Shown here piece after piece: positions 4,150-63,999 of a DNA stretch of 64,000 bases. A model generated the notes under the pieces. That model worked only from the letters and a program-made list of their open reading frames with translations, was not told where the DNA came from and ran no database searches. A program made the translations under genes and the position numbers. This DNA is from Candidatus Woesearchaeota archaeon. GTDB taxonomy: Archaea; Nanobdellota; Nanobdellia; SCGC-AAA011-G17; JAGVZF01. Location of the stretch: NCBI GenBank assembly GCA_964549185.1, contig CAZJUI010000002.1, positions 28,409 through 92,408 of the forward strand. The letters are read 5' to 3'. Numbering within the stretch: the stretch's first letter is position 1; every line of letters starts with the position of its first letter.

Positions 4150-4904
4150 CAAAAATAATCTATGATGATAAAGTGCTTGTAAAAGGAGCTGTAACAAACT
4201 CTTTGGATAGTTTGACTAATGAACTCTCTAATGATCCTGTAATAAGCTCTAAAGTTTACGATATGTTAACCAATAAAGAATCAAAACAGGAAGATTCTGT
4301 TAAGAAAATAATTGCTGACGAAATGCATGAATTATATATTAAAGCTTCATTATCTCCATTAGAAGAATCCTATAAATTGTTTAAAGATAAGTTAGGCGAA
4401 CTTACAACAAAACACCTATTTTACATTCTAGCTCAAAATTACCCAAAATCTTCTGTTGAACATATTAATAATATCCTTAAAAATGATAAAAATATTGTTT
4501 TGTTGACAAGAATGCCATTACTTTTTTTTAATGCTATTCACACGATGGATGAAAATCAGGAATTTAAAACAGCAATTGAAAAAGAAAGATTAAAAGTCCT
4601 TACACCTTACAATTTCTATCGCAAACATTTCCTAGTTGATGAAAAAAATGCAATAACTCGAGGTTCCATAGATTCAGCATTACTCTTACAGGCATCAAAA
4701 GAATTTCAAGAAGAAAAAAACAATACATTGTACGTTAGTAGTCATCTGAGAGATGTATTATTAATGAGGGAAAATATTACAGAAGATTTAAAAAATACCA
4801 AGATAGTAAAGCATGTTGGAAGTCAACACCCTCCAAAATGTAAATTATTGGATGGATGTTTCCTAGATTTGCTTGAGCTTGAATCATATTTGAAAACAGC
4901 ATGA
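4146..4904 (+). CDS. Hypothetical protein, member 2 of the tandem paralog set.
   Basis: ORF of 252 aa. The start and stop overlap on both sides, which suggests translational coupling. Confidence 0.55.
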   Translation: MTKIIYDDKVLVKGAVTNSLDSLTNELSNDPVISSKVYDMLTNKESKQEDSVKKIIADEMHELYIKASLSPLEESYKLFKDKLGELTTKHLFYILAQNYPKSSVEHINNILKNDKNIVLLTRMPLLFFNAIHTMDENQEFKTAIEKERLKVLTPYNFYRKHFLVDEKNAITRGSIDSALLLQASKEFQEEKNNTLYVSSHLRDVLLMRENITEDLKNTKIVKHVGSQHPPKCKLLDGCFLDLLELESYLKTA

Positions 4905-5698
4905 AAACACATTTAATCTACGATGAAGCTGCATTAACAAAAGGAGCAGTGAACAAAGCATTAGAAAGCACATCCACTTTAATATACTTGTTCGAAAGTT
5001 CTCAAGATTCAAGCTTATTCCATGGTGTTTCAAAAGAAAAAGCAGTAAAAGCAATCTATGTTCAAAGATTATTTCCGGCATTTATTAGAGCCTCTCTTTT
5101 GCCAGAAAAACAAGGCTATCAATCTTTATTATCTGAATTTAAACTTGAAGATGTAGAAGCTATCTCTAGTTTTCTAAAGCAATATTATCCAACAGATTCA
5201 AAAAAGCATATTCTTGATATGTTAAGCAATGACAGAAAGATAACAATAATCACAAGACTTCCCACTTATCTGTTCGCAGAGGTATACAACTTAAACGAAA
5301 AATCTGATTTTTATTTTGCTGTAAAGAATAATAGTCTTGTGATACTTACGCCTTATAATTATTTCCCAAGAAACAGGCTTGCAGTATCTTATACAATGGA
5401 AAATGAAATAATTCAGTATACAGTATCAGAAATATTAAATTCCAGGGCAAAATTAACATTCTTTGTAAATCCATTAATAGATTATATTAAAAGTATCGGC
5501 CACAGCATAAAAGGAATTTCAGAAAACAAGACTACAGTGTTAATTAATGATGAACGTCCTGAAGATACAGAGTTCATAGATCATTACGTTCCGGATTTCG
5601 AGAGATTAGAAGATTTAGTGGAAGTTCAGGAAGTAGATAATCTTAAAGATGTCTTGAATTTTCCATATATAAAAGATAAACCCAATCAAAACCTTTAA
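4901..5698 (+). CDS. Hypothetical protein, member 3 of the tandem paralog set.
   Basis: ORF of 265 aa with N-terminus MKTHLIYDE, identical to member 1. It carries the ITRLPTYLF and LVILTPYNYF motifs. Confidence 0.55.
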   Translation: MKTHLIYDEAALTKGAVNKALESTSTLIYLFESSQDSSLFHGVSKEKAVKAIYVQRLFPAFIRASLLPEKQGYQSLLSEFKLEDVEAISSFLKQYYPTDSKKHILDMLSNDRKITIITRLPTYLFAEVYNLNEKSDFYFAVKNNSLVILTPYNYFPRNRLAVSYTMENEIIQYTVSEILNSRAKLTFFVNPLIDYIKSIGHSIKGISENKTTVLINDERPEDTEFIDHYVPDFERLEDLVEVQEVDNLKDVLNFPYIKDKPNQNL

Positions 5699-39796: not shown

Positions 39797-40537
39797 ATGA
39801 GTAAAAAGATAAGTTTGATTTTTGTAACATTACTTCTATTAATTATTCCTTTAGCATTTGCAATAACAGGCTCAGTAGGTAGCGGAAAAATTTATTTAAA
39901 AGAAGAAATATCTCCTAATCAGCCTACAGAAATTCAAAAAACTTTAAGGGTAATCAATAACAATGATTTTCCTGTTACGATTACCATAAGTGTAGTAGAA
40001 GACTTAACAGATATAACTGAAATAATAGATAATGATTTTGTTCTTAAAGCGAATGAAGAAAAAGATGCTCGTTATGCTTTTATCTTAAAACGTCCCGGAA
40101 CTTATAGCGGTAAAATTCTTACAATGTTTAAACCCGAAGAAGGTAATGGTATTGCCCTAGCAACCGAAGTTCAAGTTATTGCATATGGAGAAGGAGATTT
40201 CCCACCTCCCGAAGAGAATAACCAAGAAGATGATACACCTACTGATAACAATGCAGATCAAAATGATAATAATGATCCCGAAACTGATGATAATACAGAT
40301 GATTCACAACAAAACCAGGATACAACAACAGACCAGACACCACCTTCAACAACTCCATCTAAAACAAATATAAAAACAGATAATATTCAACCAACTACAC
40401 CAACAGGAAAAACAACTAAAACAACTAAAACAAAACCAAACCCATTCTATGGCACATTTCTAATCTTAGTGATAGTAGTACTTGGATTGATGATATATTT
40501 CCTATTAACAAAAAACTCAGGGAGCAATAAAAAATGA
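39797..40537 (+). CDS. Surface protein with a signal peptide, a Thr/Pro/Asp-rich linker and a C-terminal TM anchor.
   Basis: ORF of 246 aa. The C-terminus reads ...NPFYGTFLILVIVVLGLMIYFLLTKNSGSNKK. The SD is aagggggat. Confidence 0.55.
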   Translation: MSKKISLIFVTLLLLIIPLAFAITGSVGSGKIYLKEEISPNQPTEIQKTLRVINNNDFPVTITISVVEDLTDITEIIDNDFVLKANEEKDARYAFILKRPGTYSGKILTMFKPEEGNGIALATEVQVIAYGEGDFPPPEENNQEDDTPTDNNADQNDNNDPETDDNTDDSQQNQDTTTDQTPPSTTPSKTNIKTDNIQPTTPTGKTTKTTKTKPNPFYGTFLILVIVVLGLMIYFLLTKNSGSNKK

Positions 40538-43500
40538 ATAAAAAAATAATTCCATTAATATTAATAACAATCATATTTGCATACACAACATTAGCTACAG
40601 ATATAGGTTATGTTGTTAGGGATAATAACTATGTTGATAGTAAGATAACTTCTATGTTTGATCAAATGTCATTAACTTATGAAGTTATTTTATCAAATAA
40701 TATTCCATCAACAAATTTTTTACAATATAAAGCAATAGTAATTAATGATAATATTCTTAACAATGCAGATCAATTACCAGTAAATACTGTTCCAGTAGTT
40801 TCACTTAATACAAAACATCCAAAATTATGGGGATGGACATTTAATGGAGTTTCATCAATAGTCAACTCCCAACCTTTAGACATAAAAAACATCGCCCAAG
40901 ATAGTCCAATAATGAAAGATCAATTTACATTTATTCAAGTTTATACACAATGTTGTTTTGATTCTTCTCCAAACAACCCATCAAGTGGTCATCAAGGAAT
41001 TCCAGCATACTATTTACTAAGATCAAATATAAGGAAGGTTCCATGGACAATAATTGGTTCAACTGTAGTAAATAATAATGATGCAGTAATTGGTGCAGCT
41101 GAAAAAGGAACACCATTCCTTAACGGACAAACAGCCCAGCAAAGAATAGTCTTCTTCGGAATAACAAAAACACAGTATTGGACATTACAAACAGAAGAAT
41201 TATTTAAGAATTCAATTACCTGGGTTATTGCCGGAAGTCTACCTCCAGAATTTAACGGTCCCATTCCAGATATTGAAATAGAAAAAAATGTAGAAAAATT
41301 AAATGCATATAATCTTAATGATTACTTTAGTTCACCTCATGGAGCAACATTAACTTATACGCACACTCAAGCTCCAAATATAGATATAACAATAGATGAA
41401 AATGGTATAGTTTCACTAAAACCAAGGAAAAAATTTGTTGGAATCCAAAAAGTAACATTTACAGCATCAGATGGAATTAAATCAACAGATAGTAATGAAG
41501 TTACAATAACAGTTCTTGATATTAATCACAAACCATCATTATCTAATTTGACAGATATGACAGTAGCAGCAGGAACTTTAATAAAATTAAAAGCTCTAGC
41601 TACAGATATTGACGATGATCCATTATCATTCACATTCTCAGCTCCATTTAATAGTAATGGGGAATGGCAAACAACAATAGCAGATCTTGGAATAAAACAA
41701 GTTACCGTAACTGTTACAGATTCTTTCGGATTATCAGATACAAAAACAGTTCAAATTACAATAGTTCCTAAAGTTGTTATTAATGAATTCGTTTCTAATC
41801 CAAGCACAGGAGACGAAGAATGGATTGAATTGTTTAATCCAAATGATATCTCTGTAACATTGTCGGGATTTAAACTTCAAGATGGTACAACCACCAAATT
41901 CTCTTTATCTGGCACAATACCACCAAAAGGATTTTTAGTTGTAAGCCCTACATTTACGTTAAACAATGATGGAGATATAATTCAACTAAAATCATTAGAT
42001 GATTCAGTAATAGATAAAGTAACTTATGGAGACTTTGACGATGGAAATTTACAAGATAATGCATTAAATCCAGGAAAAGGAAAATCATCTGGACGTTTAC
42101 CAGATGGATTTGACACAGATAATGACAAAAATGATTTCCATATATTTGATTTTCCAACAAAAGGAATTTCAAATTCAGCAGATGTAAGACCTCCAACAGT
42201 AAATTTACTTTCACCGACTTCAGGAGCAGTATTAAGAACAAGAAACATAGATTTTACATTTTCAGTTTCAGATAATAATGCTCAACAAATTAGTTGCACA
42301 TTATTTACCGATATATCGGGAATATTTGTTTCATCATCAACAAAAACAGTAGGAAATGGCCAAACAAGTTCATTTAATATACAGGAGATTGCAAATGGGG
42401 ATTATAGATGGAATGTAAAATGTTCAGATGGAAATAATGAAGCATTTGCTCGAGAAGATTTCACATTTACAATGGATGCTCCATTTGCTCCAGTTTTACA
42501 ACCAATTTTAGATATCACAGTTAATGAAAATGATTTGGTTACAGTCACAGCAATAGCATCTGATCAAACTCCAGGAGATACCATAATATATTCAATATCA
42601 GATTCAAGATTTACACAAATAGGTCCCGGAATTTTCCAATGGCAGACCGACTTTTCATCATCTGGAGTACATATTGTGACAGTAATAGCAGAGGATACAG
42701 AAGGCTTATCAGATTCAGAAACATTTAAGGTTATAGTAAACAACATAAACAGAGCCCCAGTATTTAACGGTCCAGTTTCAGATATTATAATTGATGAAGA
42801 CACAACAACCCAAGTTTCATTAGCAACTTATTTCGATGATTTAGACAACGATGCACTAACATTCACTTCAATATCTCCAGTAACAGCGATAATATCGATA
42901 TCACCAGCAGGACTTGCAACAATAAGCCCAGCAACAGATTTTAATGGAATTGTGAAGATAAAGTTTAAAGCATCTGATGGTCCATCATTTGTTGAATCTA
43001 ACGAAATTACTTTAACAATTAATCCAGTTAATGATGCTCCAAAACTATTGACAAATATTCCAGATGTTAGCTGGCCCCAAGACACTTCATTGACAGATAA
43101 TGTTGATCTTAACACATATTTCATAGATGTAGATTCATCATTAATAACATACATAGTTTCTGGAAATAACAGAATAACAGTAACAATAAGTCCTGAAGGA
43201 AAAGTTTCATTTTCTCCAATTGGACATTTCAATGGACAAGAAACAATAACATTTACAGCATCTGATTCATTATTATCAACAAATTCAAATCCAGTCAATT
43301 TAATTGTTACAAGGCAAAATATTGCTCCGGTAATAGATCCAATTCCAGATCAGACAATGCCTGAAGATGCTACAATAGGTCCAGAAGTAACTCTTTCTGC
43401 TTCTGATGAAGATGGAACAATATCAAAATTTGAGGTTGCAAAACAAGATGAATCTAAAGTTAGATGTATTATCTCAGATAAAAGATTAACATTTATTCCA

Positions 43501-45633
43501 GGAAAAGATTTCAATGGATTAGCAACATGCGATATTCAAGTTGTAGATGATGAAAATGCAGCAACTTTAACAACAGTTAAAATAAATGTAACTCCAGTTA
43601 ATGATGCTCCTGAAATAAAAGATTACTCTCCAAAGAGAGATCCAAAAATAACAGAGAATGGAAAACAATTATTTTCAGTAGATGTTAATGATATTGACAG
43701 TCCAGAAGCAGATATCTTAGTTAGATGGACTGTCGATGATAATTTTGTTGCCTTAGGAAAAACATTCACATTCAATTCACCTGGGGAAGGAACTTACAAG
43801 ATTAAAGTAACAGTTTCAGATGGTGAATTTACAGTATTCAGAGAATGGAAATTAATCTCATCAAGAATTCCAATAGCAGACTCATTTGATGGAAACACAA
43901 CAGATTTCAGTAATCTAACAGATGAACAATTAAAAAATATGAATTGTTTAATCCTAGAAAAAACACAATATGGTAAAATAGATTTCTGCGGAAGAGCAGT
44001 TATTGACATGAGAGATGTTGTTGACCTAGATTCATTTGTAACAATATCTAAAGGATTAATTGGAATAGATACAGTTGAACTTCTTGCATTCAAGGGAAAA
44101 GCAGCCCAGCTTTCAATGTACAATCTAGAATCAACAAAGACACCTTTAATTTTCTTCAACGATCCATATACCTTAGATTTATCAAAGATAACAACTTCTT
44201 GTCCCCGGGATAGATGTAAGAATGTCAACTTCAATCCATTAACAAAAAAATTAGTATTTGATTTAAGCAAATTTTCAATATACAAAGCATCTGATCAAAC
44301 TCAATTAACCTGTTCACAGCAAAATGGATTTTCCTGTTCATCCCAAGATCAATGTTCAGGTAATTTGCTTCCAAGCTCAGACTCAGCATTCTGCTGCTCA
44401 GCAAAATGTTCGTTGGGAAACGAAACAAGTTTAGACAGATGTGAAGAAGGAATTAAAGGAAACTTAGAAATTACAATAAAAGAACCTGATGCAAATGATG
44501 ATTTTTCTCCAGGAGAAACAATTCCATTAAATGTAAAAATAAAAAATAACAATAACGAGAAAAAAGATTTAATTGTTCAAGCAACATTATTTGATGAAAC
44601 AGAAGATGATGAACTTGATAAAGTTGAATCAGATTCATTTTCAGTAAGAAAATCAGATTCTAGAGATGTTGAACTTCCATTAAAAGTTCCAAGCTTCGAC
44701 CTAGATGAAGACAATGATTACTCAATATTTGTAAAAGTATTTGAAGAAAGTGATGAAGAGCTTCAATGTAATGAAGATATAATAAATGTAGACATAAAAT
44801 TAAAGAAACATAATGTTGTTATTAATAGATTTGATCTAGCTCCATTAGATGTTCAATGCGGAGATGTAGTCTCAGCAATAGTTGATGTACACAACATTGG
44901 AACAAGTGATGAAGACGATATTCAGGTTATTTTATCAAATAAAGATTTAGATTTATTAGCAAAGACAGACATATTTGAACTTCAAAGAATAGGAGATGAT
45001 GATTCAAAATCTCTAGAAAGATTTACATTTAAAATTCCAGATAAAGTAAAAGGTACATTTTTAATAGACGCTACAGTATTCTCTGGTGGAAATGAGGACA
45101 CAGTTACGAAAGAGTTGATAATAGATTGCAATATTCCTTACATTGATTTAGTATTATTGCAGGAAATATTGGATGCAAAACCAGGATCTTCGATATCAAT
45201 TCCAGTTTCAATAGCTAATACAGGAACTGATCCTATTACAATTAGCCTAGAATCAGATCCATTAGCTTCCTGGTTAAGCAAGGACTCTGTTTCAATTAGT
45301 TTGCAACCTTCCGAAACAACAACAACTTCATTAACAATCCACATTGCAGATGAGGCTCCAGCAGGAACATACCCATTATCAATAAAAACAAGAGTAAACG
45401 GAGCAACAACAACCCAACAAACACAAACAATTAATATTGCTCCATCAGATACAAAATATGTTCCAGTATATTCAGAGGGAAACACAAAAACAAGATCAGG
45501 AAATTTGAAATTATCAAGAATTCCAACAATAATACCAGAAGCAAATTCACCAATTGCAGTAATATTCTTGATAATAGCAAACATATTGCTTTTAATCTTG
45601 ATTATTGTTATATTGAAAAGATTGATGGATTAA
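40534..45633 (+). CDS. Giant surface protein of 1699 aa. It has a lamin-tail domain, multiple cadherin/Ig-like repeats with VNDAP, a C-terminal CARDB-like module and a TM anchor.
   Basis: Signal peptide. LTD signature VVINEFVSNPSTGDEEWIELFNPND...GFKLQDG...GFLVVS. There are repeated PVNDAP boundaries. The 250-aa C-terminal module is homologous to 47734..49710. The C-terminus has a TM segment and ends KRLMD. Confidence 0.75.
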   Translation: MNKKIIPLILITIIFAYTTLATDIGYVVRDNNYVDSKITSMFDQMSLTYEVILSNNIPSTNFLQYKAIVINDNILNNADQLPVNTVPVVSLNTKHPKLWGWTFNGVSSIVNSQPLDIKNIAQDSPIMKDQFTFIQVYTQCCFDSSPNNPSSGHQGIPAYYLLRSNIRKVPWTIIGSTVVNNNDAVIGAAEKGTPFLNGQTAQQRIVFFGITKTQYWTLQTEELFKNSITWVIAGSLPPEFNGPIPDIEIEKNVEKLNAYNLNDYFSSPHGATLTYTHTQAPNIDITIDENGIVSLKPRKKFVGIQKVTFTASDGIKSTDSNEVTITVLDINHKPSLSNLTDMTVAAGTLIKLKALATDIDDDPLSFTFSAPFNSNGEWQTTIADLGIKQVTVTVTDSFGLSDTKTVQITIVPKVVINEFVSNPSTGDEEWIELFNPNDISVTLSGFKLQDGTTTKFSLSGTIPPKGFLVVSPTFTLNNDGDIIQLKSLDDSVIDKVTYGDFDDGNLQDNALNPGKGKSSGRLPDGFDTDNDKNDFHIFDFPTKGISNSADVRPPTVNLLSPTSGAVLRTRNIDFTFSVSDNNAQQISCTLFTDISGIFVSSSTKTVGNGQTSSFNIQEIANGDYRWNVKCSDGNNEAFAREDFTFTMDAPFAPVLQPILDITVNENDLVTVTAIASDQTPGDTIIYSISDSRFTQIGPGIFQWQTDFSSSGVHIVTVIAEDTEGLSDSETFKVIVNNINRAPVFNGPVSDIIIDEDTTTQVSLATYFDDLDNDALTFTSISPVTAIISISPAGLATISPATDFNGIVKIKFKASDGPSFVESNEITLTINPVNDAPKLLTNIPDVSWPQDTSLTDNVDLNTYFIDVDSSLITYIVSGNNRITVTISPEGKVSFSPIGHFNGQETITFTASDSLLSTNSNPVNLIVTRQNIAPVIDPIPDQTMPEDATIGPEVTLSASDEDGTISKFEVAKQDESKVRCIISDKRLTFIPGKDFNGLATCDIQVVDDENAATLTTVKINVTPVNDAPEIKDYSPKRDPKITENGKQLFSVDVNDIDSPEADILVRWTVDDNFVALGKTFTFNSPGEGTYKIKVTVSDGEFTVFREWKLISSRIPIADSFDGNTTDFSNLTDEQLKNMNCLILEKTQYGKIDFCGRAVIDMRDVVDLDSFVTISKGLIGIDTVELLAFKGKAAQLSMYNLESTKTPLIFFNDPYTLDLSKITTSCPRDRCKNVNFNPLTKKLVFDLSKFSIYKASDQTQLTCSQQNGFSCSSQDQCSGNLLPSSDSAFCCSAKCSLGNETSLDRCEEGIKGNLEITIKEPDANDDFSPGETIPLNVKIKNNNNEKKDLIVQATLFDETEDDELDKVESDSFSVRKSDSRDVELPLKVPSFDLDEDNDYSIFVKVFEESDEELQCNEDIINVDIKLKKHNVVINRFDLAPLDVQCGDVVSAIVDVHNIGTSDEDDIQVILSNKDLDLLAKTDIFELQRIGDDDSKSLERFTFKIPDKVKGTFLIDATVFSGGNEDTVTKELIIDCNIPYIDLVLLQEILDAKPGSSISIPVSIANTGTDPITISLESDPLASWLSKDSVSISLQPSETTTTSLTIHIADEAPAGTYPLSIKTRVNGATTTQQTQTINIAPSDTKYVPVYSEGNTKTRSGNLKLSRIPTIIPEANSPIAVIFLIIANILLLILIIVILKRLMD

Positions 45634-45679
45634 ATTTTTCTTTTAATTAAATTTATATATTTATCTATTATAACCCATT

Positions 45680-46057
45680 ATGATGATTGTTGCTAGTCTA
45701 GAAAATTACGTATTGGAAAAACCTTTAGAATGTTTTGTAGAAGCGGAAATTGAAAGGGAAGAATTAAACAAGCCAGGAATATTATTAATTTATTCTTCTA
45801 AGGATCCAGGTATTTTACAGGTATTCTTTATGAATCATAATCCACAAGATAGATCTGCTATTTATTATCAAAAAACAGATTATCATAATAATCCCTTATC
45901 TTGGGGGTTTATTATATATAAAAATCAAGATATTGGGCCTGTAGAAAAAATTCTTACAGTCAGAAATAAAAAACCATTTATCGGTTATATCGGACATGAA
46001 GATGATGAATATGCTGTTGCAAAAATAAGAGATAAACCAAGATTAAGATATAGTTAA
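45680..46057 (+). CDS. Hypothetical protein.
   Basis: ORF of 125 aa. Confidence 0.4.
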   Translation: MMIVASLENYVLEKPLECFVEAEIEREELNKPGILLIYSSKDPGILQVFFMNHNPQDRSAIYYQKTDYHNNPLSWGFIIYKNQDIGPVEKILTVRNKKPFIGYIGHEDDEYAVAKIRDKPRLRYS

Positions 46058-46089
46058 GTTTATAAATTTATAAACAGGATATTTATTTT

Positions 46090-47628
46090 ATGCAAAAAGA
46101 GGTTATCGGTGTATTTTTAGTAGCTATTTTATTAGTTCCATTTTCTCAAGCTCAATTAAATTCTATTGAAATTGAAGATGTAAATGTTAATGATAATTCT
46201 ATACAAGTTTTAATACAAAATAATTTTAACCAGGATTTTAATAAGATAACTTTTATTATTAATAGTCAATATACGATAATTCAAGATAATGAATTAAAAG
46301 CTCTAGAAACTAAATTCTTTGTTGTTAACTATCCAGGTGGAATTAAATTAGAAACAATAAAAGTTATTGTTGGAGATCAATCAGCTGATTATGTATTTAC
46401 AGGAAACGAAGATATGTTTGTTGTTAATCAAGAGATAAGTTCAACTACATCAACAACTGAAAGTAATTCACCTATAAGTTATATTTATTCTAATCAAAGA
46501 TTAGCTAAGCTTCAAGATAACAATGTTGTTTATTATCATTCAGATAATATTGGAAGTACAAGTTTACAAACAGATGTCAATAGCAACATTAAATTTAAAG
46601 CTAACTATCTTCCATTTGGTAAAGAGCTAAGTTTTTCATCTATAAATGAACAAAGATATGGATTTACAGGAAAAGAGCTTGATACAGAAAGTTCATTAAA
46701 TTACTTCAATGCACGTTATTACATTCCATCAAATGGAAAGTTTATTTCTAATGATCCCATCTTTAAACCAACTGAAGGCGGTTATCAGTATGTTAGTAAC
46801 AATCCTTTGACAATTACTGATCCTAGTGGGAAACAAGCTTCGGCCGATGCTACTTACACAGATATAGGTTATCCATCTGGAGATTATAAATCATTACAAG
46901 TTCATATACATCAACAATCTTTTGAATCCTATTTGGCAACATTAGAATATGAAAAAACAACCAAAAAGGTAGATATGATTCAAAAATTAACACTTACTGC
47001 AATGGGCGCTGACGTGGTTTTAGCATTTGGTGGAGCTCCTTTTTCAAATTCTGCTCCTACAAGCGCAGCTAGACCCAGGAGGATCACACCCAGACTTCCA
47101 CCAAGAATGAGGCAAGAAATGTCTAGTGAACCAATTCCAGAATCAATTGATCGTAAAAGAGAACCACCAGCCATTAAAAAATTAATAGAAATAGGATTTT
47201 TTAAACCACCATCACCTAAACCATCACTCGGAGCAATTCATTCAGGAATAATGCAATCATTAAATGCAGGAGAATCAGTTAATCTAGTTATAGTAAAATA
47301 TCCTGGAAAAGAAAATGTGGGTATAATTCCTGGAAATTCGCACCTGGGAATATTTCGAGATCAAGTGCAAACTCAATTTAAGGATAATGATGTAATATCG
47401 ATAGGAATTCAACTAACAAAAACAGAAAAAGGCGTTTATCTTCAAATAAGACATAGAGGAAACAGTGACAATGGAGAACCTTTACGAATAGCAAATGCAG
47501 CCCTTCGTACTATATCTAGTTCAAACCAAGGTGAGTTAGGAAAACCAGGAACGCCTTATAATTTTTATACAAAAATAGATGAAAAATCTCATGGCGAATG
47601 GGATGGAACAACATTCGAAATAAAATAA
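46090..47628 (+). CDS. Secreted polymorphic-toxin-like protein with a signal peptide, an RHS repeat-associated core, and a C-terminal domain of about 270 aa of unknown function.
   Basis: The stretch YYHSDNIGSTSLQTDVNSNIKFKANYLPFGKELSF...RYGFTGKELDTESSLNYFNARYYIPSNGKFISNDPI matches the Rhs core consensus (DHLGS..TD...YxPFGE...RYxFTGKExDxETGLYYFGARYYDPxxGRFxSxDP). Confidence 0.7.
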   Translation: MQKEVIGVFLVAILLVPFSQAQLNSIEIEDVNVNDNSIQVLIQNNFNQDFNKITFIINSQYTIIQDNELKALETKFFVVNYPGGIKLETIKVIVGDQSADYVFTGNEDMFVVNQEISSTTSTTESNSPISYIYSNQRLAKLQDNNVVYYHSDNIGSTSLQTDVNSNIKFKANYLPFGKELSFSSINEQRYGFTGKELDTESSLNYFNARYYIPSNGKFISNDPIFKPTEGGYQYVSNNPLTITDPSGKQASADATYTDIGYPSGDYKSLQVHIHQQSFESYLATLEYEKTTKKVDMIQKLTLTAMGADVVLAFGGAPFSNSAPTSAARPRRITPRLPPRMRQEMSSEPIPESIDRKREPPAIKKLIEIGFFKPPSPKPSLGAIHSGIMQSLNAGESVNLVIVKYPGKENVGIIPGNSHLGIFRDQVQTQFKDNDVISIGIQLTKTEKGVYLQIRHRGNSDNGEPLRIANAALRTISSSNQGELGKPGTPYNFYTKIDEKSHGEWDGTTFEIK

Positions 47629-47733
47629 TAATACTTTTTGACATACTTAAACAACCACCAAAACACATCCTTTCTAACACTATTATCCCAATAATATCAA
47701 TCAAAACCTTTATATATTAGTTATAACTTTAGA

Positions 47734-49710
47734 ATGGTAATTATCTATCATAGTAATAACAAATCGGGGGTTTTAAAAGTGAAAAAGATAACAATTTTAA
47801 GTATATTATTGATATTGGCAGTAGTTTTAACTCCTATTGCACAAGCAGCTGATTTAATAGTAACCTCTCCTAGTAACCCAAGCGGTAATCCAGGAGCAAC
47901 AGTTACAGTAACATTTTCAGCAAGAACAACAGGGTCAGTTCCTAAGCCAGTTACATTCTCAAGCTCAACATTAACTAAAGGAGCAGACACAATTACAGTT
48001 CCAGGAACATTTACAGACACATTAAATGATAATAACATTAAAACATTAAGCTTCCAAGTAACAATTCCAGCCGGAAAAGCAGCAGGAACATACTCTGGAA
48101 CAATAACAATTAAAGAGACAGGAAATGATGCAAACTCAGCTACATTACCTTATTCAGTAACAGTAAATTCAATAACAGCATTAGATGTTCAAACTTATAC
48201 AACTACAAATCCATTAACAGTTAATGTAGATAAAGGAGAATCAACAAGTTCTTCTTTTACAGTTCAAAATACAGGAACCAATGCATTAACATTAGATGCA
48301 AACTCATTTACATACGATGTAACAAAGTTTACAGATTCAAATGGAAAGATATTAACTTTATCATTTGTTCCATTAAAATCTAGCTTAGCAGCCGGAGAGC
48401 AAACAACAGTTACAGTTAGCATTAATGCTCCATCAGGAATAGAAATAGGAAATTATCTTGGAACAATAATTGCTAAATCAGGAACAGCACAAGATACATT
48501 TGCAATAGAAGCTAAAGTTCAACCAAGCATTTGTTCTGATGGTGTTCGTGGAAGAGTAACAGTTGATATAAAAGATCCAGATAATGGAGACGATTTCAAG
48601 CCAGGAGATACAATTCAAGTAACAGCTAAAGTTGATAATGATATAGGCGATGATTCGGACTTTGTAATAACAGCTGTTTTATATGATATTTCAGATGATA
48701 ACGAAGTTGAATCAGTAGATTCAGATTCAGTTTCAATAGATGATGGAGATAACGAAGATATAGATGTTGATTTGGAAGTTCCATATTCAGACATTAAAAA
48801 AGGAAGTTCTTACAAATTATTTGTGAAAGCTTATGAAGATGGAGAAGAAGACACAAATTGTGCTCTTGATAGTATTGACTTAGATTTAAAACTTGAAAAG
48901 CACGAAGTTCAAATTGACAAATTCACATTAGCTCCAATCCAAGTTTCATGCAGCGATACAGTAACAGCGGTAATTGGATTACAGAACATTGGCTCAAATG
49001 ACGAAGATGATGTCTATGTTTCATTAGTAAATTCATTGCTTGGATTAAATGAACAATCAACAACATTCGACTTAGATAAGCTTGGTGGAAGCGATGATAC
49101 ATCAACTGAAAGAATATCATTCCAAGTTCCAAATGATGCTAAAGATCAACAATATCAAATAACAGCAACTGTTTACTATAACGATGGAAAAGATTCAAGA
49201 GACAAAACACAAACATTAACAGTTAAAGGCTGTTCACCAACAACAGGAAAAATATATGAAGTTTCAACACCATCATCACTATCTGTTGATTCAGGAGATA
49301 CATTATCTCTTCCAGTTTCAATAACAAACAATGGAGATGAAAAAGTAACATTGACAGTATCAGCAGTTTCAAGTGATGGAAGTTTAAGTTCAGACAGTAA
49401 AACAGTAGTCCTTGATCCAGGAAAATCAACAACAGTAAATTTAGCTTTAGACGCTAAAGAAGGAATTTCAGGAACTAAAACATTAACATTAACAACAAAA
49501 TCAGGGAACACAGTTGTCGATACCAAAAACTTAAATGTCAACATAAGAAGTGCAGCTCCACCTGTAACAGGCGGAACAACAGGAACTGGTAAGGTTGATC
49601 AAAAAACAATATTCTGGATAATTGGAGACATAGTCTTGATTATAGTAGGATTATTCTTCATAAAATTGATCTTTTCCAGAAGAAAGAAAGACAAAGATGA
49701 ACTAGATTAA
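47734..49710 (+). CDS. Surface protein with a signal peptide, Thr/Ser-rich beta-domains, a CARDB-like module shared with the 1699-aa protein, and a C-terminal TM anchor.
   Basis: ORF of 658 aa. The C-terminus reads IFWIIGDIVLIIVGLFFIKLIFSRRKKDKDELD. Confidence 0.65.
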   Translation: MVIIYHSNNKSGVLKVKKITILSILLILAVVLTPIAQAADLIVTSPSNPSGNPGATVTVTFSARTTGSVPKPVTFSSSTLTKGADTITVPGTFTDTLNDNNIKTLSFQVTIPAGKAAGTYSGTITIKETGNDANSATLPYSVTVNSITALDVQTYTTTNPLTVNVDKGESTSSSFTVQNTGTNALTLDANSFTYDVTKFTDSNGKILTLSFVPLKSSLAAGEQTTVTVSINAPSGIEIGNYLGTIIAKSGTAQDTFAIEAKVQPSICSDGVRGRVTVDIKDPDNGDDFKPGDTIQVTAKVDNDIGDDSDFVITAVLYDISDDNEVESVDSDSVSIDDGDNEDIDVDLEVPYSDIKKGSSYKLFVKAYEDGEEDTNCALDSIDLDLKLEKHEVQIDKFTLAPIQVSCSDTVTAVIGLQNIGSNDEDDVYVSLVNSLLGLNEQSTTFDLDKLGGSDDTSTERISFQVPNDAKDQQYQITATVYYNDGKDSRDKTQTLTVKGCSPTTGKIYEVSTPSSLSVDSGDTLSLPVSITNNGDEKVTLTVSAVSSDGSLSSDSKTVVLDPGKSTTVNLALDAKEGISGTKTLTLTTKSGNTVVDTKNLNVNIRSAAPPVTGGTTGTGKVDQKTIFWIIGDIVLIIVGLFFIKLIFSRRKKDKDELD

Positions 49711-49759: not shown

Positions 49760-51121
49760 ATGAAAAAACATCAAGATTTTTTATCTCTTGGAGAAGAATA
49801 TTATAAGATTATTGAGATGCATAAGAAATATGTAGCAGAAACTATCCCAAGAAGAACTGACCCAAATCCAAAAGATAGTGTAAAAAGAATTCATAAAGCC
49901 CTGAATATATTAAAACCATTTTTAGATATAGAGGTAAAATTTGAAGAAAATTGGTTATACAACAATATTGTAGAAGAACCTTGCTCGTTACATGGCTGCA
50001 CACATCGTAATTTTGATATAACACAATATTCAACAGATATTAAAGAACATTTAGATGAAATAAAATTAAGTTTAAAGAGAAAATTAGTAAAAAATTCATT
50101 AGCTCTTTTATTTTCATCAGAAAGAGAAACAATATTTTCTTCTGAAAAATTAAGATATCCAAAATTAAACTCAGAGGAAAAAGAAATAATAAAAGAATTA
50201 GGACAACATTTTCCATTTGGTTACGATTCAAATAAAGAAATTCCAGAAATAAAAAAACTTAATTTATTATCACAAAATAAACTAGAAGAAATAATAGTTT
50301 CTTTATCATCAAAAGGATTTTCTCATGAATTTATAACAGCGATAAGAATGTCTTATCAACCAAGAAAAATAGAAGAATATAAAACTATAAAACAGGAAAA
50401 AGAAATAAAACAAGCAATAAATAAAGAGATATCAGAGGAAGATAAAGCTTATTCATTGGAAATATTAAAAGTTATCGGAATAGAAGGAGATATTGCAACA
50501 ATAATATCTTCGAAATTTTCTACAGAGAAAATAGAAGAAAGATATAAAAAACTTGAAGACTTAGTAGGATATCATTTAGCTGAAAAATTGATACACAAAA
50601 ATAATGAAATAGCATTATTAGATCCGCCAGAATATTCATTATATCTTAGATTATTAAAAAATACTTTAAATAAGATTAGAATAAATGAAATAACAGATGA
50701 TGAATATAACATCGAACATAATGTTAAGGTATTTTCCAGCATACCATCTTTAGAAAATTTGTTAAAGAAACTGAAAGAAGAAAATCCAAGCATAGTTGAA
50801 GAACAAGAGTTTGATGATGAAACAGAAGTTGAAAAAATTAGAATAACTGGTCAAGATTTAACAACTATAAAAAATGTTCTTAAAAACGTTTATGATGGAG
50901 AAAGAATAGTCAGAGAATTAAGTCCAATAATTAAAAAATATGGATTATCATTTGATATGACTGGAAAACAACACATAGGTCTATATGGAGAATTTGATGG
51001 AAAAAAGAGAATAATAAAAACATTTGCACTTTCACCTAGCGATGTTCGTGCAGGTAGACCAGCATTTACAGAACTTAAAAGAAGGCTTAAAGAAGAGGGA
51101 TATATATTATCAAATGATTGA
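49760..51121 (+). CDS. Hypothetical protein, possibly a partner of the downstream AsnB-like enzyme.
   Basis: ORF of 453 aa. Its stop overlaps the start of the next gene. Confidence 0.45.
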   Translation: MKKHQDFLSLGEEYYKIIEMHKKYVAETIPRRTDPNPKDSVKRIHKALNILKPFLDIEVKFEENWLYNNIVEEPCSLHGCTHRNFDITQYSTDIKEHLDEIKLSLKRKLVKNSLALLFSSERETIFSSEKLRYPKLNSEEKEIIKELGQHFPFGYDSNKEIPEIKKLNLLSQNKLEEIIVSLSSKGFSHEFITAIRMSYQPRKIEEYKTIKQEKEIKQAINKEISEEDKAYSLEILKVIGIEGDIATIISSKFSTEKIEERYKKLEDLVGYHLAEKLIHKNNEIALLDPPEYSLYLRLLKNTLNKIRINEITDDEYNIEHNVKVFSSIPSLENLLKKLKEENPSIVEEQEFDDETEVEKIRITGQDLTTIKNVLKNVYDGERIVRELSPIIKKYGLSFDMTGKQHIGLYGEFDGKKRIIKTFALSPSDVRAGRPAFTELKRRLKEEGYILSND

Positions 51122-53456: not shown

Positions 53457-53597
53457 ACTAGTAGGAAAATACTACAAATATAAAAGGCTTTCTATCAATG
53501 AGTCTGTTAAATATTCTCTGTTTAAGATATGATGGAAAAAGTTTCCTTTTATTTAGCATTAATTAGGTTTAACAAAACTCTACCGATAAATGATAAG

Positions 53598-53685
53598 CGG
53601 GCCCACGGGGATTTGAACCCCGGACCTATTGCTCTCCCCTTAAGAATAGAAGGCAATTGCGCTATCCAGGCTGCGCTATGGGCCC
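53598..53685 (-). tRNA. tRNA-Arg(TCT) with a 13-nt intron at 37/38.
   Basis: The reverse complement reads GGGCCCATAGCGCAGCCTGGATAGCGCAATTGC-CTTCTA-[TTCTTAAGGGGAG]-A-GCAATAGGTCCGGGGTTCAAATCCCCGTGGGCCCG. The D-stem is GCGC/GCGC, the T-loop is TTCAAAT, and a TATA box (TTTAATAT) lies at -34 to -27. Confidence 0.75.
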
Positions 53686-59289: not shown

Positions 59290-61935
59290 ATGAATGAATT
59301 TAATAAAATAGAAAAAAAATGGCAAAAACTTTGGGAAGAAAAAAAAACATTTAAAACAAGATTAAATAAAAAAAAGAAACTATATGTTATAGAAATGTTT
59401 CCCTACCCAAGTGGTTTAGGATTACATATGGGCCATGCAAGAACTTATTGTATAGGTGATTGTTACGCTCGTTTTAAAAGATTGCAAGGTTTTAATGTTC
59501 TTTATCCGATGGGATATGATGCATTTGGGTTACCAGCAGAAAATGCAGCAATTAAAGAAAAAACTCATCCCAAAATTTATACAGAAAACGCAATCAAAAA
59601 TTTCAGAAAACAACTAACAGAACTTGGTTTAAGTTATGATTGGGATAAATCATTAGCAACTTGCTATCCTGATTATTATAAATGGAACCAATGGTTTTTC
59701 TTAAAGTTTTATGAAAAAAGCTTAGCTTACAGAAAAAAAGCTCCAATAAACTGGTGTCCGAAAGATCAAACTGTTTTAGCTAATGAACAGGTTATCGATG
59801 GAAAATGTTGGAGATGTGAAACTAAAGTTGAAATTAAACAACTTGAACAATGGTTTTTCAAAATTACAGATTATGCAGAAGAATTATTACAAGACATTAA
59901 AAATTTAGATTGGCCTGAAAAAATAAAATTAATGCAAGAAAATTGGATTGGAAAAAGTGAAGGGACACTAACAGAGTTCAAATTAAAAGATTCAGATGAA
60001 TATCTAGAGATATTTACAACAAGGATAGACACTTTATTCAGCGTGACATTTCTAGTGATGGCTCCCGAACATCCAAAAGTTTTGGAATTAGTAAAAGGAA
60101 CTTCTTATGAATCAAAAGCTAAAGAATTCATTAACAAGATTGTTTTAACAGAAAAATTTACAAGAACAGCAGAAGATAAGGAAAAAGAAGGGTTTTTTAC
60201 AGGACGATATGCAATAAATCCAGCAACTAATAAAGAAATCCCAATTTATCTCGCTAATTTTGTTGTTATGGATTATGGAACAGGAATTGTAATGGCAAAT
60301 GCTCATGATGAAAGAGATGTAGAACTAGCAAAAAAATATAACATTCCTTTAATTGAAGTATTAAAACATAAAGATGGAACAGATTTAGAAAAAGATGAAA
60401 TTTACACTGATTATGGAATATTAAAAAATTCAGCTCAATTTGACAATCTAACAAGCGAAGAAGCAATTCCCAAAATACAATCTTGGTTACAAAATAAAAA
60501 TCTAGGTAAAAAAACAATTCAATATAAAATAAGAGATTGGTTAATCTCAAGACAAAGATATTGGGGAACTCCAATTCCAATAATATATTGTGATAAATGT
60601 GGCATTGTTCCAGTTCCAGAAAAACAACTTCCGGTTATTCTTCCAGAAAAAGTAAAATTTACAGGAGAAGGTAATCCTTTATTGTCATCGAAAGAATTTG
60701 TTAATGTAAAATGTCCGAAATGTAAATCAAAAGCTAGAAGAGAAACAGATACAATGGATACATTTGTAGATTCTTCATGGTATTTCCTAAGATATACTTC
60801 AAATAAAGAGAAAAAAACACCTTTCAAAAAAGAAGCTGTAAAATATTGGCTTCCAGTTGATACCTATATTGGTGGAGCAGAACATGCTGTTTTACATTTG
60901 TTATATGCAAGATTCTTTACTAAAGTTTTAAGAGATTTAAAATTATTAAGTTTTGATGAACCTTTCTTAAAATTATTTAGTCAAGGAACAGTTACAAAAA
61001 ATAATGTTAGAATGAGTAAAAGTCACGGCAACGTTGTTTCTCAAAATGAAATTGCTGATAAATACGGAATAGATACAGCAAGATTATATCTATTGTTTGT
61101 TTCCTCTCCAGACAAAGACTTGGAATGGAATGATGAAGGAGCAGAAGGAGCTTTTCGTTTCATAAATAAATTTTATTCTTTATACAAAGAAAAACATTCT
61201 CCAATTTCAAATATAAAAGACAAATTTTTATTAAATAAATTAAATAAAACAATAAAGGAAGTTTCTTTAGATATAGAAGAATTCAAGCTTAATCTTGCTT
61301 TAATAAAAATCATGGAATTAGTTAATTACATAGTAAAAAATAAAGAATATATTAGTCAAAAATTTTACAAAAATTCTTTAACACAAATTGCTATATTAAT
61401 TAATTCATTTACCCCACATATTTCAGAAGAATGTTATAAATTATTAGGAAAGAAAGGATTTTCATCTCTACAAAAATGGCCAAAATACAATATAAAAAAG
61501 ATTGATGAAAGAGTAGATGCTATCGAATATTTAATAGAAGCAACAAAAGAAGATATAAGAAGAATTAAAGAATTAATTAAAATAGAACCGAAAGAAATAA
61601 CTTTATTTATTTCAGAAAAATGGAAATATAGTTTTTATTATAATCTAAAAAAAGAACTTGAAAAAACAAGAGATATTAAAACTTTGATGAATCATTTAAT
61701 GCTAAAAGAACATGAACAGGAAATTTCTAAGATAATTCCATCCGTTGTTAACAACCAACAAAAACTTCCATTATATATCTTGGATCAAAAGACAGAGTTT
61801 GAAAGTTTATCTAAAGAAAAACAATTACTAGAAAAAGAATTTAATGTAAAAATAAATATTATTCTTTCAGATAAAAACCAAGAACAAAAAGCAAAACAAT
61901 CCATTCCTGGAAAGCCAGCTATTATTCTTAAATAA
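59290..61935 (+). CDS. leuS: Leucyl-tRNA synthetase of the archaeal/eukaryal type.
   Basis: HIGH motif HMGHARTY. ARFKRLQGFNVLYPMG resembles the Pyrococcus LeuRS N-terminus. The KMSKS motif is VRMSKSHGN. The ORF is 881 aa. Confidence 0.9.
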   Translation: MNEFNKIEKKWQKLWEEKKTFKTRLNKKKKLYVIEMFPYPSGLGLHMGHARTYCIGDCYARFKRLQGFNVLYPMGYDAFGLPAENAAIKEKTHPKIYTENAIKNFRKQLTELGLSYDWDKSLATCYPDYYKWNQWFFLKFYEKSLAYRKKAPINWCPKDQTVLANEQVIDGKCWRCETKVEIKQLEQWFFKITDYAEELLQDIKNLDWPEKIKLMQENWIGKSEGTLTEFKLKDSDEYLEIFTTRIDTLFSVTFLVMAPEHPKVLELVKGTSYESKAKEFINKIVLTEKFTRTAEDKEKEGFFTGRYAINPATNKEIPIYLANFVVMDYGTGIVMANAHDERDVELAKKYNIPLIEVLKHKDGTDLEKDEIYTDYGILKNSAQFDNLTSEEAIPKIQSWLQNKNLGKKTIQYKIRDWLISRQRYWGTPIPIIYCDKCGIVPVPEKQLPVILPEKVKFTGEGNPLLSSKEFVNVKCPKCKSKARRETDTMDTFVDSSWYFLRYTSNKEKKTPFKKEAVKYWLPVDTYIGGAEHAVLHLLYARFFTKVLRDLKLLSFDEPFLKLFSQGTVTKNNVRMSKSHGNVVSQNEIADKYGIDTARLYLLFVSSPDKDLEWNDEGAEGAFRFINKFYSLYKEKHSPISNIKDKFLLNKLNKTIKEVSLDIEEFKLNLALIKIMELVNYIVKNKEYISQKFYKNSLTQIAILINSFTPHISEECYKLLGKKGFSSLQKWPKYNIKKIDERVDAIEYLIEATKEDIRRIKELIKIEPKEITLFISEKWKYSFYYNLKKELEKTRDIKTLMNHLMLKEHEQEISKIIPSVVNNQQKLPLYILDQKTEFESLSKEKQLLEKEFNVKINIILSDKNQEQKAKQSIPGKPAIILK

Positions 61936-62250
61936 TCACTTCCTTCTATTTCCAGCAATATTTATTGCTTTATTAACTTGTATCAATCCTATCAGAAATA
62001 ATATTACAAATAATACTCCTAATGGTCTTGAGGCAAACGGATCAAGTTTTCCCAAAGATATCAACAATGTCACTATTCTTGTAATAAACAAAACTATCAT
62101 ACTAAGCAGAGCCATAATAAAACCCTGCTTTAATAATCCATTAGTCTTTTTTATTAAATTATATAATATTATTAATATTGCTAAATTAATAATTAATCCT
62201 ATAATATCATAAACTACAGGCTTAAATAATATACTACTAATGTTTTTCAC
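61936..62250 (-). CDS. Small membrane protein with a GTG start.
   Basis: ORF of 104 aa with 3 TM helices. Confidence 0.3.
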   Translation of the reverse strand: MKNISSILFKPVVYDIIGLIINLAILIILYNLIKKTNGLLKQGFIMALLSMIVLFITRIVTLLISLGKLDPFASRPLGVLFVILFLIGLIQVNKAINIAGNRRK

Positions 62251-63999
62251 CCCCCTTTATTTTGTTTATCCTATTCAACAATGAATCTCTGGTTTTTCTA
62301 TAACTAGTTTCACTTATCACTCCTTGATCAAATACTTTATCCAATTTTTTTAATTCAAATCTTAGTTTTATAATTCTTTTATCAGTTATATTAGAACTTT
62401 TCTTTATATATCCAGCATCAGCTAATTCATGCTCATCAACGTGTTTTTTAAATTTTATCGTTTCTTTCTTTATATGTTTTAAATATATAAATATAAATAT
62501 CAAAACAGCTAACATAAACATTAAAATGGCAGCATAAGTTAGATAGTTGACAAATCCTTCAGGATATCTTGTCCCCCTCTTAACAGTAAATAAATGAGTA
62601 GAACTGCCAACTATATTATTATAAGAAACTTTTACATAAAGAACATACTCTCCTGGTTTAAGGTCTTCAGGAATATAAAACTTCTTTAGATAACTAACTT
62701 CCCTTTCCAATCCTCTAGTTTCATGTTCAGATAAAATGATAATATCGTCTAAACTTTTTATTTGATAGTCTATCCTTACATCAACTAAATCCTTTAAATT
62801 CTTAAGATTTAGTAATGTTATTTCAGCAGATAATGTTCCACCCGGAGCAACAACTCTATTTTCACCTGATATGGTTATAGTAGAGTCAAATAAAGGATTT
62901 TCAGATTCAACTTCAATAATTACAGGTATTTCTTTTTCTATATCTCCTCCAGTTATAATAATCTTTCTGTTATAAGCATAAGGTTCAGTCCCAGTAGAAG
63001 CACTAAATATTAATTGTATTAACTTCTCTTCATTTGGTTTTAATTTTAAGCTTAATTTACTTTCTCCATTAATGAAAGTAACAAATTCTTTTAAATCACT
63101 TAAATCAATCTCTAAATCAATATTTTTCTTTTCATTATTAAAAATTTTGATAAACTCTTTTACATTTTCATTCTGTCTTAATGAAACTTTTATTACATCT
63201 ATATTTAGAATAAATGAATCTCTTTTTACAATAGCAGCTCCCGAACTTCCGCTCCCCCCACCCCCTCCACCCCCTCCACCCCCACCTGAACTTCCACCGC
63301 TTCCAGAATCACCAGAACTTCCAGGAGTTTCCTCAGAAGAGTAAGCAGAAAAATGTGTTACATTAAAGACTAAACTCCCATCGCTATAACTAATCTTATT
63401 GCAAATTGAATTAGGACAAACTTCTTCATCAATTAATATTCTTGGATTAGTATAAGCTAATCCATACAAAGATAGTAAAGCGCTTTTATTTAAGAAAGAT
63501 ACATAAGAGCTATTAATAACTAGATAATTAGATCTTATCTCGGTAAACAAATCAAGATTAATATCATCTTGGCTGATATTTATATTTTCCAAAAACTTTA
63601 TCATTCCAAAACTAGGTTTTTCTAAAGTAAAATTAGTTATGTTTTGCATCTGCCATCTAGTCATAGAGTTAAGATTAGTTGTATTCCCAGAATACTGAGA
63701 ATAAGAAACATTATATCTAAAACTGTTATTCACACTAAAACTAACACTCTCACTATCATTTACTGCACCGAGAGTATTATTGGCATAAACTCTTATTATA
63801 TGATTTCCTTCACCTATACTAAAATTAACATAATCTCCATTTAATGTTATATTTACTCCATTATCTAAATTATACCATCTCCTGCTTATTATAGGAGGAT
63901 TACCTCCAAATACATAATATCTTAGTTCAATGCTTTGATTAAAATTATAAGTAAAATTAACAGGTCTATAAATAAAAATATTTGGCGGACTACCAGAAA
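62237..63999 (-). CDS. Type-I membrane surface protein with an Asn-rich ectodomain, a poly-Gly linker, one TM segment and a charged cytoplasmic tail of about 75 aa. The N-terminus lies beyond the window end.
   Basis: The ORF-track start at 63733 is a GTG. The frame stays open upstream to the window edge. The linker is GSSGDSGSGGSSGGGGGGGGGGGSGSSG and the TM segment is YLTYAAILMFMLAVLIFIFIYL. Confidence 0.5.
   Translation of the reverse strand, partial: SGSPPNIFIYRPVNFTYNFNQSIELRYYVFGGNPPIISRRWYNLDNGVNITLNGDYVNFSIGEGNHIIRVYANNTLGAVNDSESVSFSVNNSFRYNVSYSQYSGNTTNLNSMTRWQMQNITNFTLEKPSFGMIKFLENINISQDDINLDLFTEIRSNYLVINSSYVSFLNKSALLSLYGLAYTNPRILIDEEVCPNSICNKISYSDGSLVFNVTHFSAYSSEETPGSSGDSGSGGSSGGGGGGGGGGGSGSSGAAIVKRDSFILNIDVIKVSLRQNENVKEFIKIFNNEKKNIDLEIDLSDLKEFVTFINGESKLSLKLKPNEEKLIQLIFSASTGTEPYAYNRKIIITGGDIEKEIPVIIEVESENPLFDSTITISGENRVVAPGGTLSAEITLLNLKNLKDLVDVRIDYQIKSLDDIIILSEHETRGLEREVSYLKKFYIPEDLKPGEYVLYVKVSYNNIVGSSTHLFTVKRGTRYPEGFVNYLTYAAILMFMLAVLIFIFIYLKHIKKETIKFKKHVDEHELADAGYIKKSSNITDKRIIKLRFELKKLDKVFDQGVISETSYRKTRDSLLNRINKIKGGEKH

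Follow-up and report, generated by a model that had tools for sequence, protein, structure and literature searches.

Rhs and TcC proteins are understood as encapsulation devices, in which a YD-repeat cocoon of 650-1300 amino acids (aa) surrounds the toxin and the protease plug is embedded. WapA of Bacillus subtilis is larger than 2000 aa, has a full YD-repeat region, and is followed immediately downstream by the immunity gene wapI. In Rhs1 autocleavage is marked by a pair of DPLGL motifs spaced 17 residues apart, and the catalytic Asp belongs to the second motif; cleavage just after this motif has been experimentally defined, and the toxin begins a few residues past it (PMC8636562). Polymorphic toxin systems are rare in archaea and mainly euryarchaeal (PMC3482391), and those that have been reported are predicted and uncharacterised (PMC8416519). 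This report addresses one gene of this kind in a stretch of 64,000 nucleotides from a Candidatus Woesearchaeota archaeon (contig CAZJUI010000002.1), hereafter the window. A first-pass annotation made from the letters alone had read the gene as a secreted Rhs-core toxin in an archaeon, and had called Rhs-type toxins rare in archaea, in agreement with the literature on polymorphic toxins (PMC3482391). With somewhat better than even confidence, we favour the reading that the gene, carried by a DPANN (Nanoarchaeia) archaeon, belongs to the Rhs polymorphic-toxin superfamily, and that its product has no shell and is exported by the Sec route.

The gene occupies 46090..47628 on the forward strand and is present as described in the list of open reading frames (ORFs); its product, a presumably secreted protein of 512 aa, combines an Rhs core with a variable C-terminus. 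NCBI-derived data contain an identical protein, P0001. The Rhs-core identity of residues 173-247 is confirmed well past chance: the segment matches the TIGR03696 model (Rhs_assc_core) over positions 1-75 of 76, with E=1.1e-19 and 70.7 bits, the curated cutoff being 32.5. A phmmer search against all PDB chains aligned residues 143-249 with the C-terminal ends of solved shells, including TccC3, TccC2, YenC2, Rhs1, Tse5 and teneurin-like shells, with E values down to 2e-9. Both Asp motifs are in register with these shells, the query reading NDP...TDPSG where TccC3 reads SDP...LDPDGL. The motifs on which the first reading relied are present as DNIGSTSLQTD, RYGFTGKELD, ARYYIPSNGKFISNDP and LTITDPSG, which ends at residue 247; only the quoted YLPFGE needs correction, and reads YLPFGKE.

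The homology is confined to the very end of the shell. The PDB alignments span only the last ~110-135 shell residues, with a total aligned extent of residues ~114-249 in the query. Likewise, the model of the E. coli-type RHS element core, NF041261, scores 27.7 bits against a cutoff of 2000, with model positions 1155-1260 of 1261 falling on residues 144-247. The absence of a YD shell, claimed at first pass, is borne out by Pfam, which finds neither RHS_repeat (PF05593) nor the YD-shell domain (PF25023) in the 512-aa protein; PAAR, VgrG and LXG have no Pfam or NCBIfam match in it either. Residues 128-247 (46471..46830, +) are the sole portion homologous to Rhs and TcC proteins. They comprise the core and about two YD-like repeats at residues 128-172, SYIYSNQRLAKL and VVYYHSDNIGSTSLQTD, which make up the ~45 residues before it.

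A defining property of polymorphic toxins is a constant carrier followed by a variable payload, and the family shows a sharp boundary of this type. About 42 close relatives were obtained by database search; their similarity to the query, at 65-80% identity, is limited to its first ~48%, and their sequences diverge right after DPSG. For residues 1-200 the mean aa identity among 14 paralogs is 55-77%. It rises to 89-93% for residues 201-240, with 79-86% at the nucleotide level, and drops to 12-17% from residue ~260 onward. The most conserved DNA therefore lies directly before the breakpoint, as expected for a recombination tract. The 40 unique C-terminal regions (CTs) fall into 21 classes, so the predicted switch to a variable C-terminus at DPSG is found as ~21 CT classes behind one conserved N-terminal half. 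The N-terminal half is a constant carrier for at least 11 paralogs per genome, and everything past DPSG(K) is an exchangeable cassette.

More than 40 members of the family have an intact ORF, 435-536 aa long, and each of these has a signal peptide and the conserved N-terminal domain. The distribution of the family was assessed by pattern scans, which use exact peptide patterns and could miss divergent relatives. Among 185,579 species-representative genomes, the sole archaeal metagenome-assembled genome (MAG) with the family is SMAG_U8169, in which 12 loci represent at least 11 genes. Several of its contigs stop within the conserved half, as is expected of multi-copy repeats. The metagenome Ga0209542 contains ~13 contigs with the family. 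SMAG_U8169 also contains another subfamily (P0043, L016, L018), whose N-terminal domain is longer and of a different kind. Bacterial Rhs cores are only 31-43% identical, over ~100 residues. Within the sensitivity of the scan the family is absent from viral contigs, and a viral origin is excluded to that extent. A search for orphan CT-immunity cassettes in the 64-kb window, with the protein as tblastn query, returned the gene itself only; related loci show tandem full-length copies instead. One family copy behind an upstream small gene (L054 917-1500), on a contig of 3x coverage, is interrupted by an in-frame stop that follows ...GSTSL, and the near-identical copy in L055 is intact; the stop-containing copy is either a pseudogene or an assembly error.

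The joint between carrier and cassette bears an aspartyl autoprotease signature, D222-PIFK and D244-PSGK separated by 17 residues (46753..46833, +). The spacing is 17 in 43 of 43 family members, and both Asp are invariant. The motif pair agrees with the published Rhs motif and cleavage position, and the predicted cleavage point lies directly after D244-PSGK.

Comparison with a syntenic locus, L001, delimits the cassette. Both loci have the same order, namely a 1699-aa adhesin, a small ORF named fam0, the Rhs gene, and an S-layer-type protein. At the protein level the two loci are 92% identical in the adhesin, 89% in the asparagine synthase and 86% in the S-layer-type protein; fam0 is 75% identical, the Rhs N-terminal half 68%, a 453-aa protein 50%, and the CT ~26%. 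The DNA identity is 80-90% upstream through fam0 and 90% over the 90 nt that immediately precede the motif, falls to 40-62% over 46830-47639, and returns to 89-94% from 47640 on. The divergent block is exactly the CT cassette, and no neighbouring gene was swapped with the CT.

The CT of the query (residues 249-512) resists assignment, as the first-pass annotation had found by inspection. Sequence, profile and fold searches leave it unmatched. It has no match in Pfam at E<=10 (the same is true of its closest relative, the CT of P0019), nor in NCBIfam, PADLOC or PHROGs; a PDB profile search gave a best E of 0.85, and the fold searches gave no assignment. A phmmer search over 1.84 billion representative proteins returned only the self match, and hhalign against the 20 other CT classes gave probabilities of 1% or lower throughout. 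A word-indexed search of 5.8 billion proteins also found no match, a weak negative, since P0001, in which the exact CT sequence is present, was likewise not recovered.

The sole relative of the query CT is the CT of P0019, a syntenic ortholog (also L001, L008 and L025), with 26% identity over ~165 residues and a pairwise E of 5e-8, covering query residues 330-491. The conserved pieces include TPxLPxR and LxxxGFFK in a basic Pro/Arg-rich linker, and the shared part has an isoelectric point (pI) of 9.6. The first ~80 CT residues of the two proteins have no similarity. Residues 1-89 of the P0019 CT are instead 37% identical to P0020 (E=4e-10), the distal part of which differs again, and P0019 CT residues 80-244 resemble query CT residues 82-243. 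P0019 thus joins a P0020-like proximal part to a query-like distal part, from which it follows that the CT is bipartite, with sub-modules that are swapped independently. Sub-module A (residues 249-328; 46834..47073, +) comprises a spacer and, at residues 300-318 (46987-47043, +), a hydrophobic segment rich in Gly and Ala. Comparable hydrophobic stretches occur 35-65 residues past the motif in at least 13 CTs that are otherwise unrelated, and many CTs of the family start with a CxxC or Cx4C loop. Sub-module B (residues 329-512; 47074..47625, +) is a putative effector domain, made of the basic linker (to ~378), an alpha/beta domain (~379-477) and a tail. The alpha/beta domain has the order helix-strand-strand-helix-strand-strand-helix in a model of the CT only.

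Sister CTs, taken from family members that were obtained by database search, provide some hints of function. The CT of P0029 has the LAS-peptidase motif SxHxxGxAxD and scores 22.8 bits against VanY, with a cutoff of 25. Those of P0012 and P0022 contain a kinase-type GRGxxGxV loop, and one member matches Pkinase with E=6e-4. P0036 carries HEGWH, a form of HExxH, and P0011 gives a partial Tiki/ChaN match. These enzyme signatures are compatible with an effector repertoire.

The N-terminal half begins with a putative Sec-type signal peptide, residues 1-21, MQKEVIGVFLVAILLVPFSQA, followed by Q (46090..46152, +). The first-pass claim of a signal peptide is consistent with K3, a hydrophobic core and the site S-Q-A before Q, which is conserved across the family in the form PFSxAQ; residues 2-14 form a helix in the AlphaFold2 (AF2) model. 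A class III (pilin-type) signal was ruled out, as the hydrophobic stretch is preceded by E, K or L, and not by G, A or S. Foldseek matches to archaeal pilins are explained by a shared layout of a helix and an immunoglobulin (Ig) domain. The signal peptide is followed by a seven-stranded beta-sandwich like those of Ig domains and carbohydrate-binding modules (CBMs), at residues 22-112 (46153..46425, +), modelled with a predicted local distance difference test score (pLDDT) of 80-90. Foldseek of the full model against the PDB returned only generic beta-sandwich accessory domains, with a best E of 6e-3, and this domain is unrelated to the Rhs shell. A Ser/Thr-rich linker, ISSTTSTTESNS, at residues 113-127 (46426..46470, +; pLDDT <50) connects it to the YD-like repeats, and the length of the linker differs among family members.

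Immunity genes were sought on both sides of the cassette. The downstream gene, which the first-pass annotation had offered as one candidate, was rejected: it encodes an S-layer-type surface protein of 658 aa (47734-49710, +) that is 86% conserved in the ortholog. Another candidate was the gene of a 453-aa cytoplasmic protein with no family match (49760..51121, +), which is 50% identical to its ortholog where the flanks are 86-92% identical. It was set aside, since it is found only at the syntenic locus and is separated from the cassette by the S-layer gene. It counts, in its own right, as the cluster's second fast-evolving gene. At five other CT classes, unannotated small cytoplasmic genes of 98-217 aa, a different one for each class, converge on the 3' end of the Rhs gene with gaps of -19 to +14 bp: L004 1545-2042(-), L026 (166 aa, -), L021/L022/L023 (159 aa), L024 (98 aa) and L032 (217 aa). 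The one in L026 sits between two tandem paralogs of one kinase-like CT class. It is possible that these five are class-specific immunity genes, the loci sampled for each being orthologous. A 62-aa ORF with a TTG start (47516-47704, -), which may be spurious, converges on the query gene and overlaps its last 113 nt, in a position analogous to that of a called 66-aa gene in L005/L006.

From these features a mode of action can be proposed for the shell-less toxin. After Sec export, the beta-sandwich would anchor the protein at the producer's surface or on the target. The Rhs aspartyl autoprotease would then cut after G247/K248, freeing residues 249-512 without a shell. The hydrophobic segment of sub-module A would aid the basic alpha/beta domain in reaching or crossing the target membrane. 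The payload would act on another cell, either the symbiont's archaeal host or a competing microbe, and this would be why no co-varying immunity gene is found on the cassette. We put forward, tentatively and as a possibility that we consider well short of probable, a wider joint interpretation. Here the cocoon-free, immunity-free Rhs carrier with its self-cleaving joint would be the main host-directed arsenal of the archaeon. It would comprise at least 11 Sec-secreted paralogs with bipartite payloads that are freed at the symbiont-host interface, each joining a segment for membrane entry to one effector fold from a set of more than 20 novel ones; fam0 (103-125 aa) would be a new accessory specific to the lineage, with a role in the control of export or cleavage and not in immunity.

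Several observations weigh against the shell-less toxin. The YD shell, which houses the protease plug and the toxin in the solved Rhs and TcC structures, is absent here. AF2 gives residues 130-247 a low-confidence pLDDT of 30-47, so that shell-independent autocleavage is conjectural; the poor fold could fit a segment normally packed inside a shell, and could equally be a limit of the modelling. The signal peptide was judged by eye alone. The positions conserved between the query and P0019 CTs hold no obvious catalytic set of His, Cys or Asp, and the query CT has no assignable activity, toxic or enzymatic, so the word toxin derives from the architecture. Nearly all sister CTs lack a Pfam match as well, and the few matches lie below curated cutoffs. 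Finally, there is no canonical downstream immunity gene at the locus, and the other paralogs have housekeeping or convergent neighbours.

The question of immunity leads to the first of the competing explanations, a classical toxin-immunity pair for kin competition, in which the CT would be a toxin acting in the cytoplasm and fam0 its immunity protein, encoded upstream. The fam0 gene (45680..46057, +) is a linked, co-oriented ORF for a cytoplasmic protein of 125 aa, 33 bp upstream of the Rhs gene. The first-pass suggestion that it confers immunity stands as to its linkage to the Rhs family, and fails as to co-variation with the CT. Homologs lie 32-37 bp upstream and co-oriented in three further variants (L001/L008/L025, L010/L027 and L054/L055), and hence in every variant examined, and the protein is confined to the lineage that carries the Rhs family: a search of 5.8 billion proteins gave only 6 clusters, none from elsewhere. 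It lacks a signal peptide, and its mildly acidic pI of 5.8-6.3 contrasts with the basic pI of the CTs (9.1-9.6). Its divergence tracks that of the CTs in rank order, at 75% identity for CTs that are 26% identical and at 36% for unrelated CTs. However, fam0 belongs to the conserved flank with its 80-90% DNA identity, the divergence beginning at the DPSG codons, and most paralogs have no fam0. It matches nothing in Pfam, NCBIfam, PADLOC, PHROGs or the PDB, and thus no known immunity family or structure. It also stands before two CT classes without detectable mutual similarity, which makes it doubtful as an immunity gene. An accessory role for the conserved half fits better than a CT-specific immunity function, and we regard kin competition as distinctly unlikely. 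We find it unlikely, to a lesser degree, that the family has nothing to do with toxicity and consists of variable surface or secreted proteins for host recognition, attachment or nutrient scavenging, with the Rhs core as a maturation or recombination module. This would fit the lack of a co-varying immunity gene and of any recognisable catalytic motif in the CT; the gene is located between an adhesin and an S-layer-type protein, its N-terminal domain is Ig/CBM-like, and DPANN archaea rely on cell-cell contact with their hosts (PMC6642349). Yet the strict conservation of the autoprotease Asp and their spacing in all 43 members suggests release of the CT over display. The LAS-peptidase, kinase-like and HExxH signatures of sister CTs are typical of effectors, class-specific small cytoplasmic genes abut the 3' ends in five CT classes, and sharp cassette polymorphism behind an Rhs core is a hallmark of toxin systems (PMC3482391).

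Two further explanations concern the origin of the gene. The gene could have arrived by horizontal transfer of a bacterial rhs gene and have since decayed, leaving an orphan fragment of core and CT without current function. Orphan rhs fragments composed of core and CT are common in bacteria, and only the last ~110-135 shell residues are kept here; against decay stand the more than 40 intact ORFs with their signal peptides and conserved N-terminal domains, the invariant functional residues, and the at least 11 copies per genome that are maintained across several environments and samples. Stop-containing copies are only occasional, and occur on low-coverage contigs. We consider this very improbable. 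It is hardly credible that the contig is bacterial, for example from the candidate phyla radiation (CPR), and the gene an ordinary small bacterial Rhs-core protein. The guanine-cytosine (GC) content of 28% and the many unannotated genes of the window would suit such a genome, as would the leucyl-tRNA synthetase (LeuRS; 59290..61935, +), which is of the bacterial type (TIGR00396, 959.6 bits, against 285.5 for leuS_arch) and was probably acquired horizontally. Most window genes scanned for archaeal informational markers gave no family. Nevertheless, the sole tRNA of the window, a tRNA-Arg(UCU) at 53597-53685 (-), has a 13-nt intron just 3' of the anticodon, of the type cut by the archaeal/eukaryal splicing endonuclease, and therefore indicates an archaeal genome. 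The gene downstream of the Rhs gene matches NF033506 ('PACE-CTERM-PROT, putative S-layer protein') with 221.8 bits, and an AglJ-like glycosyltransferase is present in the window. Close relatives are all on contigs titled Candidatus Nanoarchaeia archaeon (phylum Nanobdellota in the NCBI taxonomy), and paralogs are adjoined by deoxyhypusine synthase, ATP-dependent DNA ligase and TrmB. The archaeal assignment made at first pass is supported by the tRNA intron, the Nanoarchaeia relatives and these archaeal neighbours.

Other features of the window may be recorded here. The tRNA-Arg was labelled tRNA-Pyl(cta) by ARAGORN in bacterial mode, a label that invites confusion with an amber suppressor; the intron mode replaced this label with the intron-bearing tRNA-Arg(UCU). 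The 1699-aa adhesin (40534-45633, +) carries six Big_9 domains, cadherin-like, lamin-tail and PKD domains, and a C-terminal transmembrane anchor; the adhesin and the S-layer-type protein have homologous C-terminal modules (~330-450 aa, 31-34% identity). In L001 a pair of an RHH antitoxin and a PIN toxin (4817-5460) lies between the adhesin and the small ORF, and is missing from the corresponding interval of the window (45633-45680). TATA-like boxes at 45651-45658 (TTTATATA) and 46061-46068 (TTTATAAA), ~22-29 nt upstream of the start codons of fam0 and the Rhs gene, are compatible with separate leaderless archaeal transcripts for the two genes, though such boxes are weak indicators at 28% GC. 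A 498-aa ORF at 62237-63733 (-) has a match to the Nup98-type autopeptidase S59 (PF04096) over residues 17-66, with 27.9 bits against a cutoff of 28.4, and may be another self-cleaving protein.

The family is of interest in several respects. With the end piece of an encapsulation device and nothing more of it, it asks whether cleavage and release of the cargo need the cocoon. DPANN archaea live attached to other cells, and their means of manipulating or competing with these cells are largely obscure; the family, with no fewer than 11 genes in a very small genome and ~21 unannotated payload classes, provides a specific set of candidates for interaction effectors. Its payloads form, in addition, a reservoir of uncharacterised protein domains. 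As no immunity gene is co-swapped with the cassette, targets outside the producer are suggested. If the targets do lie there, the system would serve inter-domain or host-directed antagonism, and not kin competition.

Compared with the described systems, the archaeal protein is closest to the plug of Rhs and TcC proteins (TccC3, 4O9X/6H6E; YenC2, 4IGL; Photorhabdus Rhs1, 7PQ5; Tse5, 8CP6), with which residues 143-249 are homologous and share the two Asp motifs 17 residues apart and a variable toxin region that starts at the same position. It differs from them in having no cocoon and no PAAR, VgrG, TcB or other delivery module. Like WapA, it would leave the cell by signal-peptide export through the general secretory pathway, with a polymorphic C-terminal toxin behind the Rhs core; unlike WapA, it has 512 aa, no shell and no co-varying neighbour. 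CdiA-CT toxins are bipartite, with an entry domain and a toxin domain. The archaeal CTs are analogous in having two independently exchangeable parts, the N-proximal one (sub-module A) plausibly for membrane entry. They have no sequence relationship to CdiA-CT, no CdiB/CdiA filament and no VENN motif.

Archaeal polymorphic toxin systems were reportedly predicted by Makarova et al. in 2019 (mBio 10:e00715-19). In the literature searched on DPANN archaea together with Rhs or polymorphic toxins, which did not cover that work, nothing was found on the present family, and relatives have already been labelled automatically by NCBI as 'RHS repeat-associated core domain-containing protein'. The shell-less archaeal variant of Rhs polymorphic toxins appears to be new, and its toxicity is suggested by its architecture. 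Two canonical Rhs features are lacking, as the family has neither the YD cocoon nor a neighbouring immunity gene that co-varies with the CT. With the systems of Zhang et al. 2012 it has in common a conserved N-terminus for trafficking and processing, hypervariable CTs made by recombination, and many novel CT domains (PMC3482391). It differs from those systems in its DPANN lineage, its at least 11 paralogs per small genome, the lack of standalone CT/immunity cassettes in the window and of any known immunity family. The only DPANN Rhs-like case in the literature searched is the giant protein SPEARE of Ca. Nanohaloarchaeum antarcticus, a surface protein with an Rhs/BC-toxin-like region and a proposed action on the host cell (PMC6642349). 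SPEARE is a single multi-domain protein, in which the toxin-like domain spans residues 3,300-4,800 and was modelled as a full BC-type shell, whereas the present family consists of short, multi-copy proteins that carry the terminal core only.

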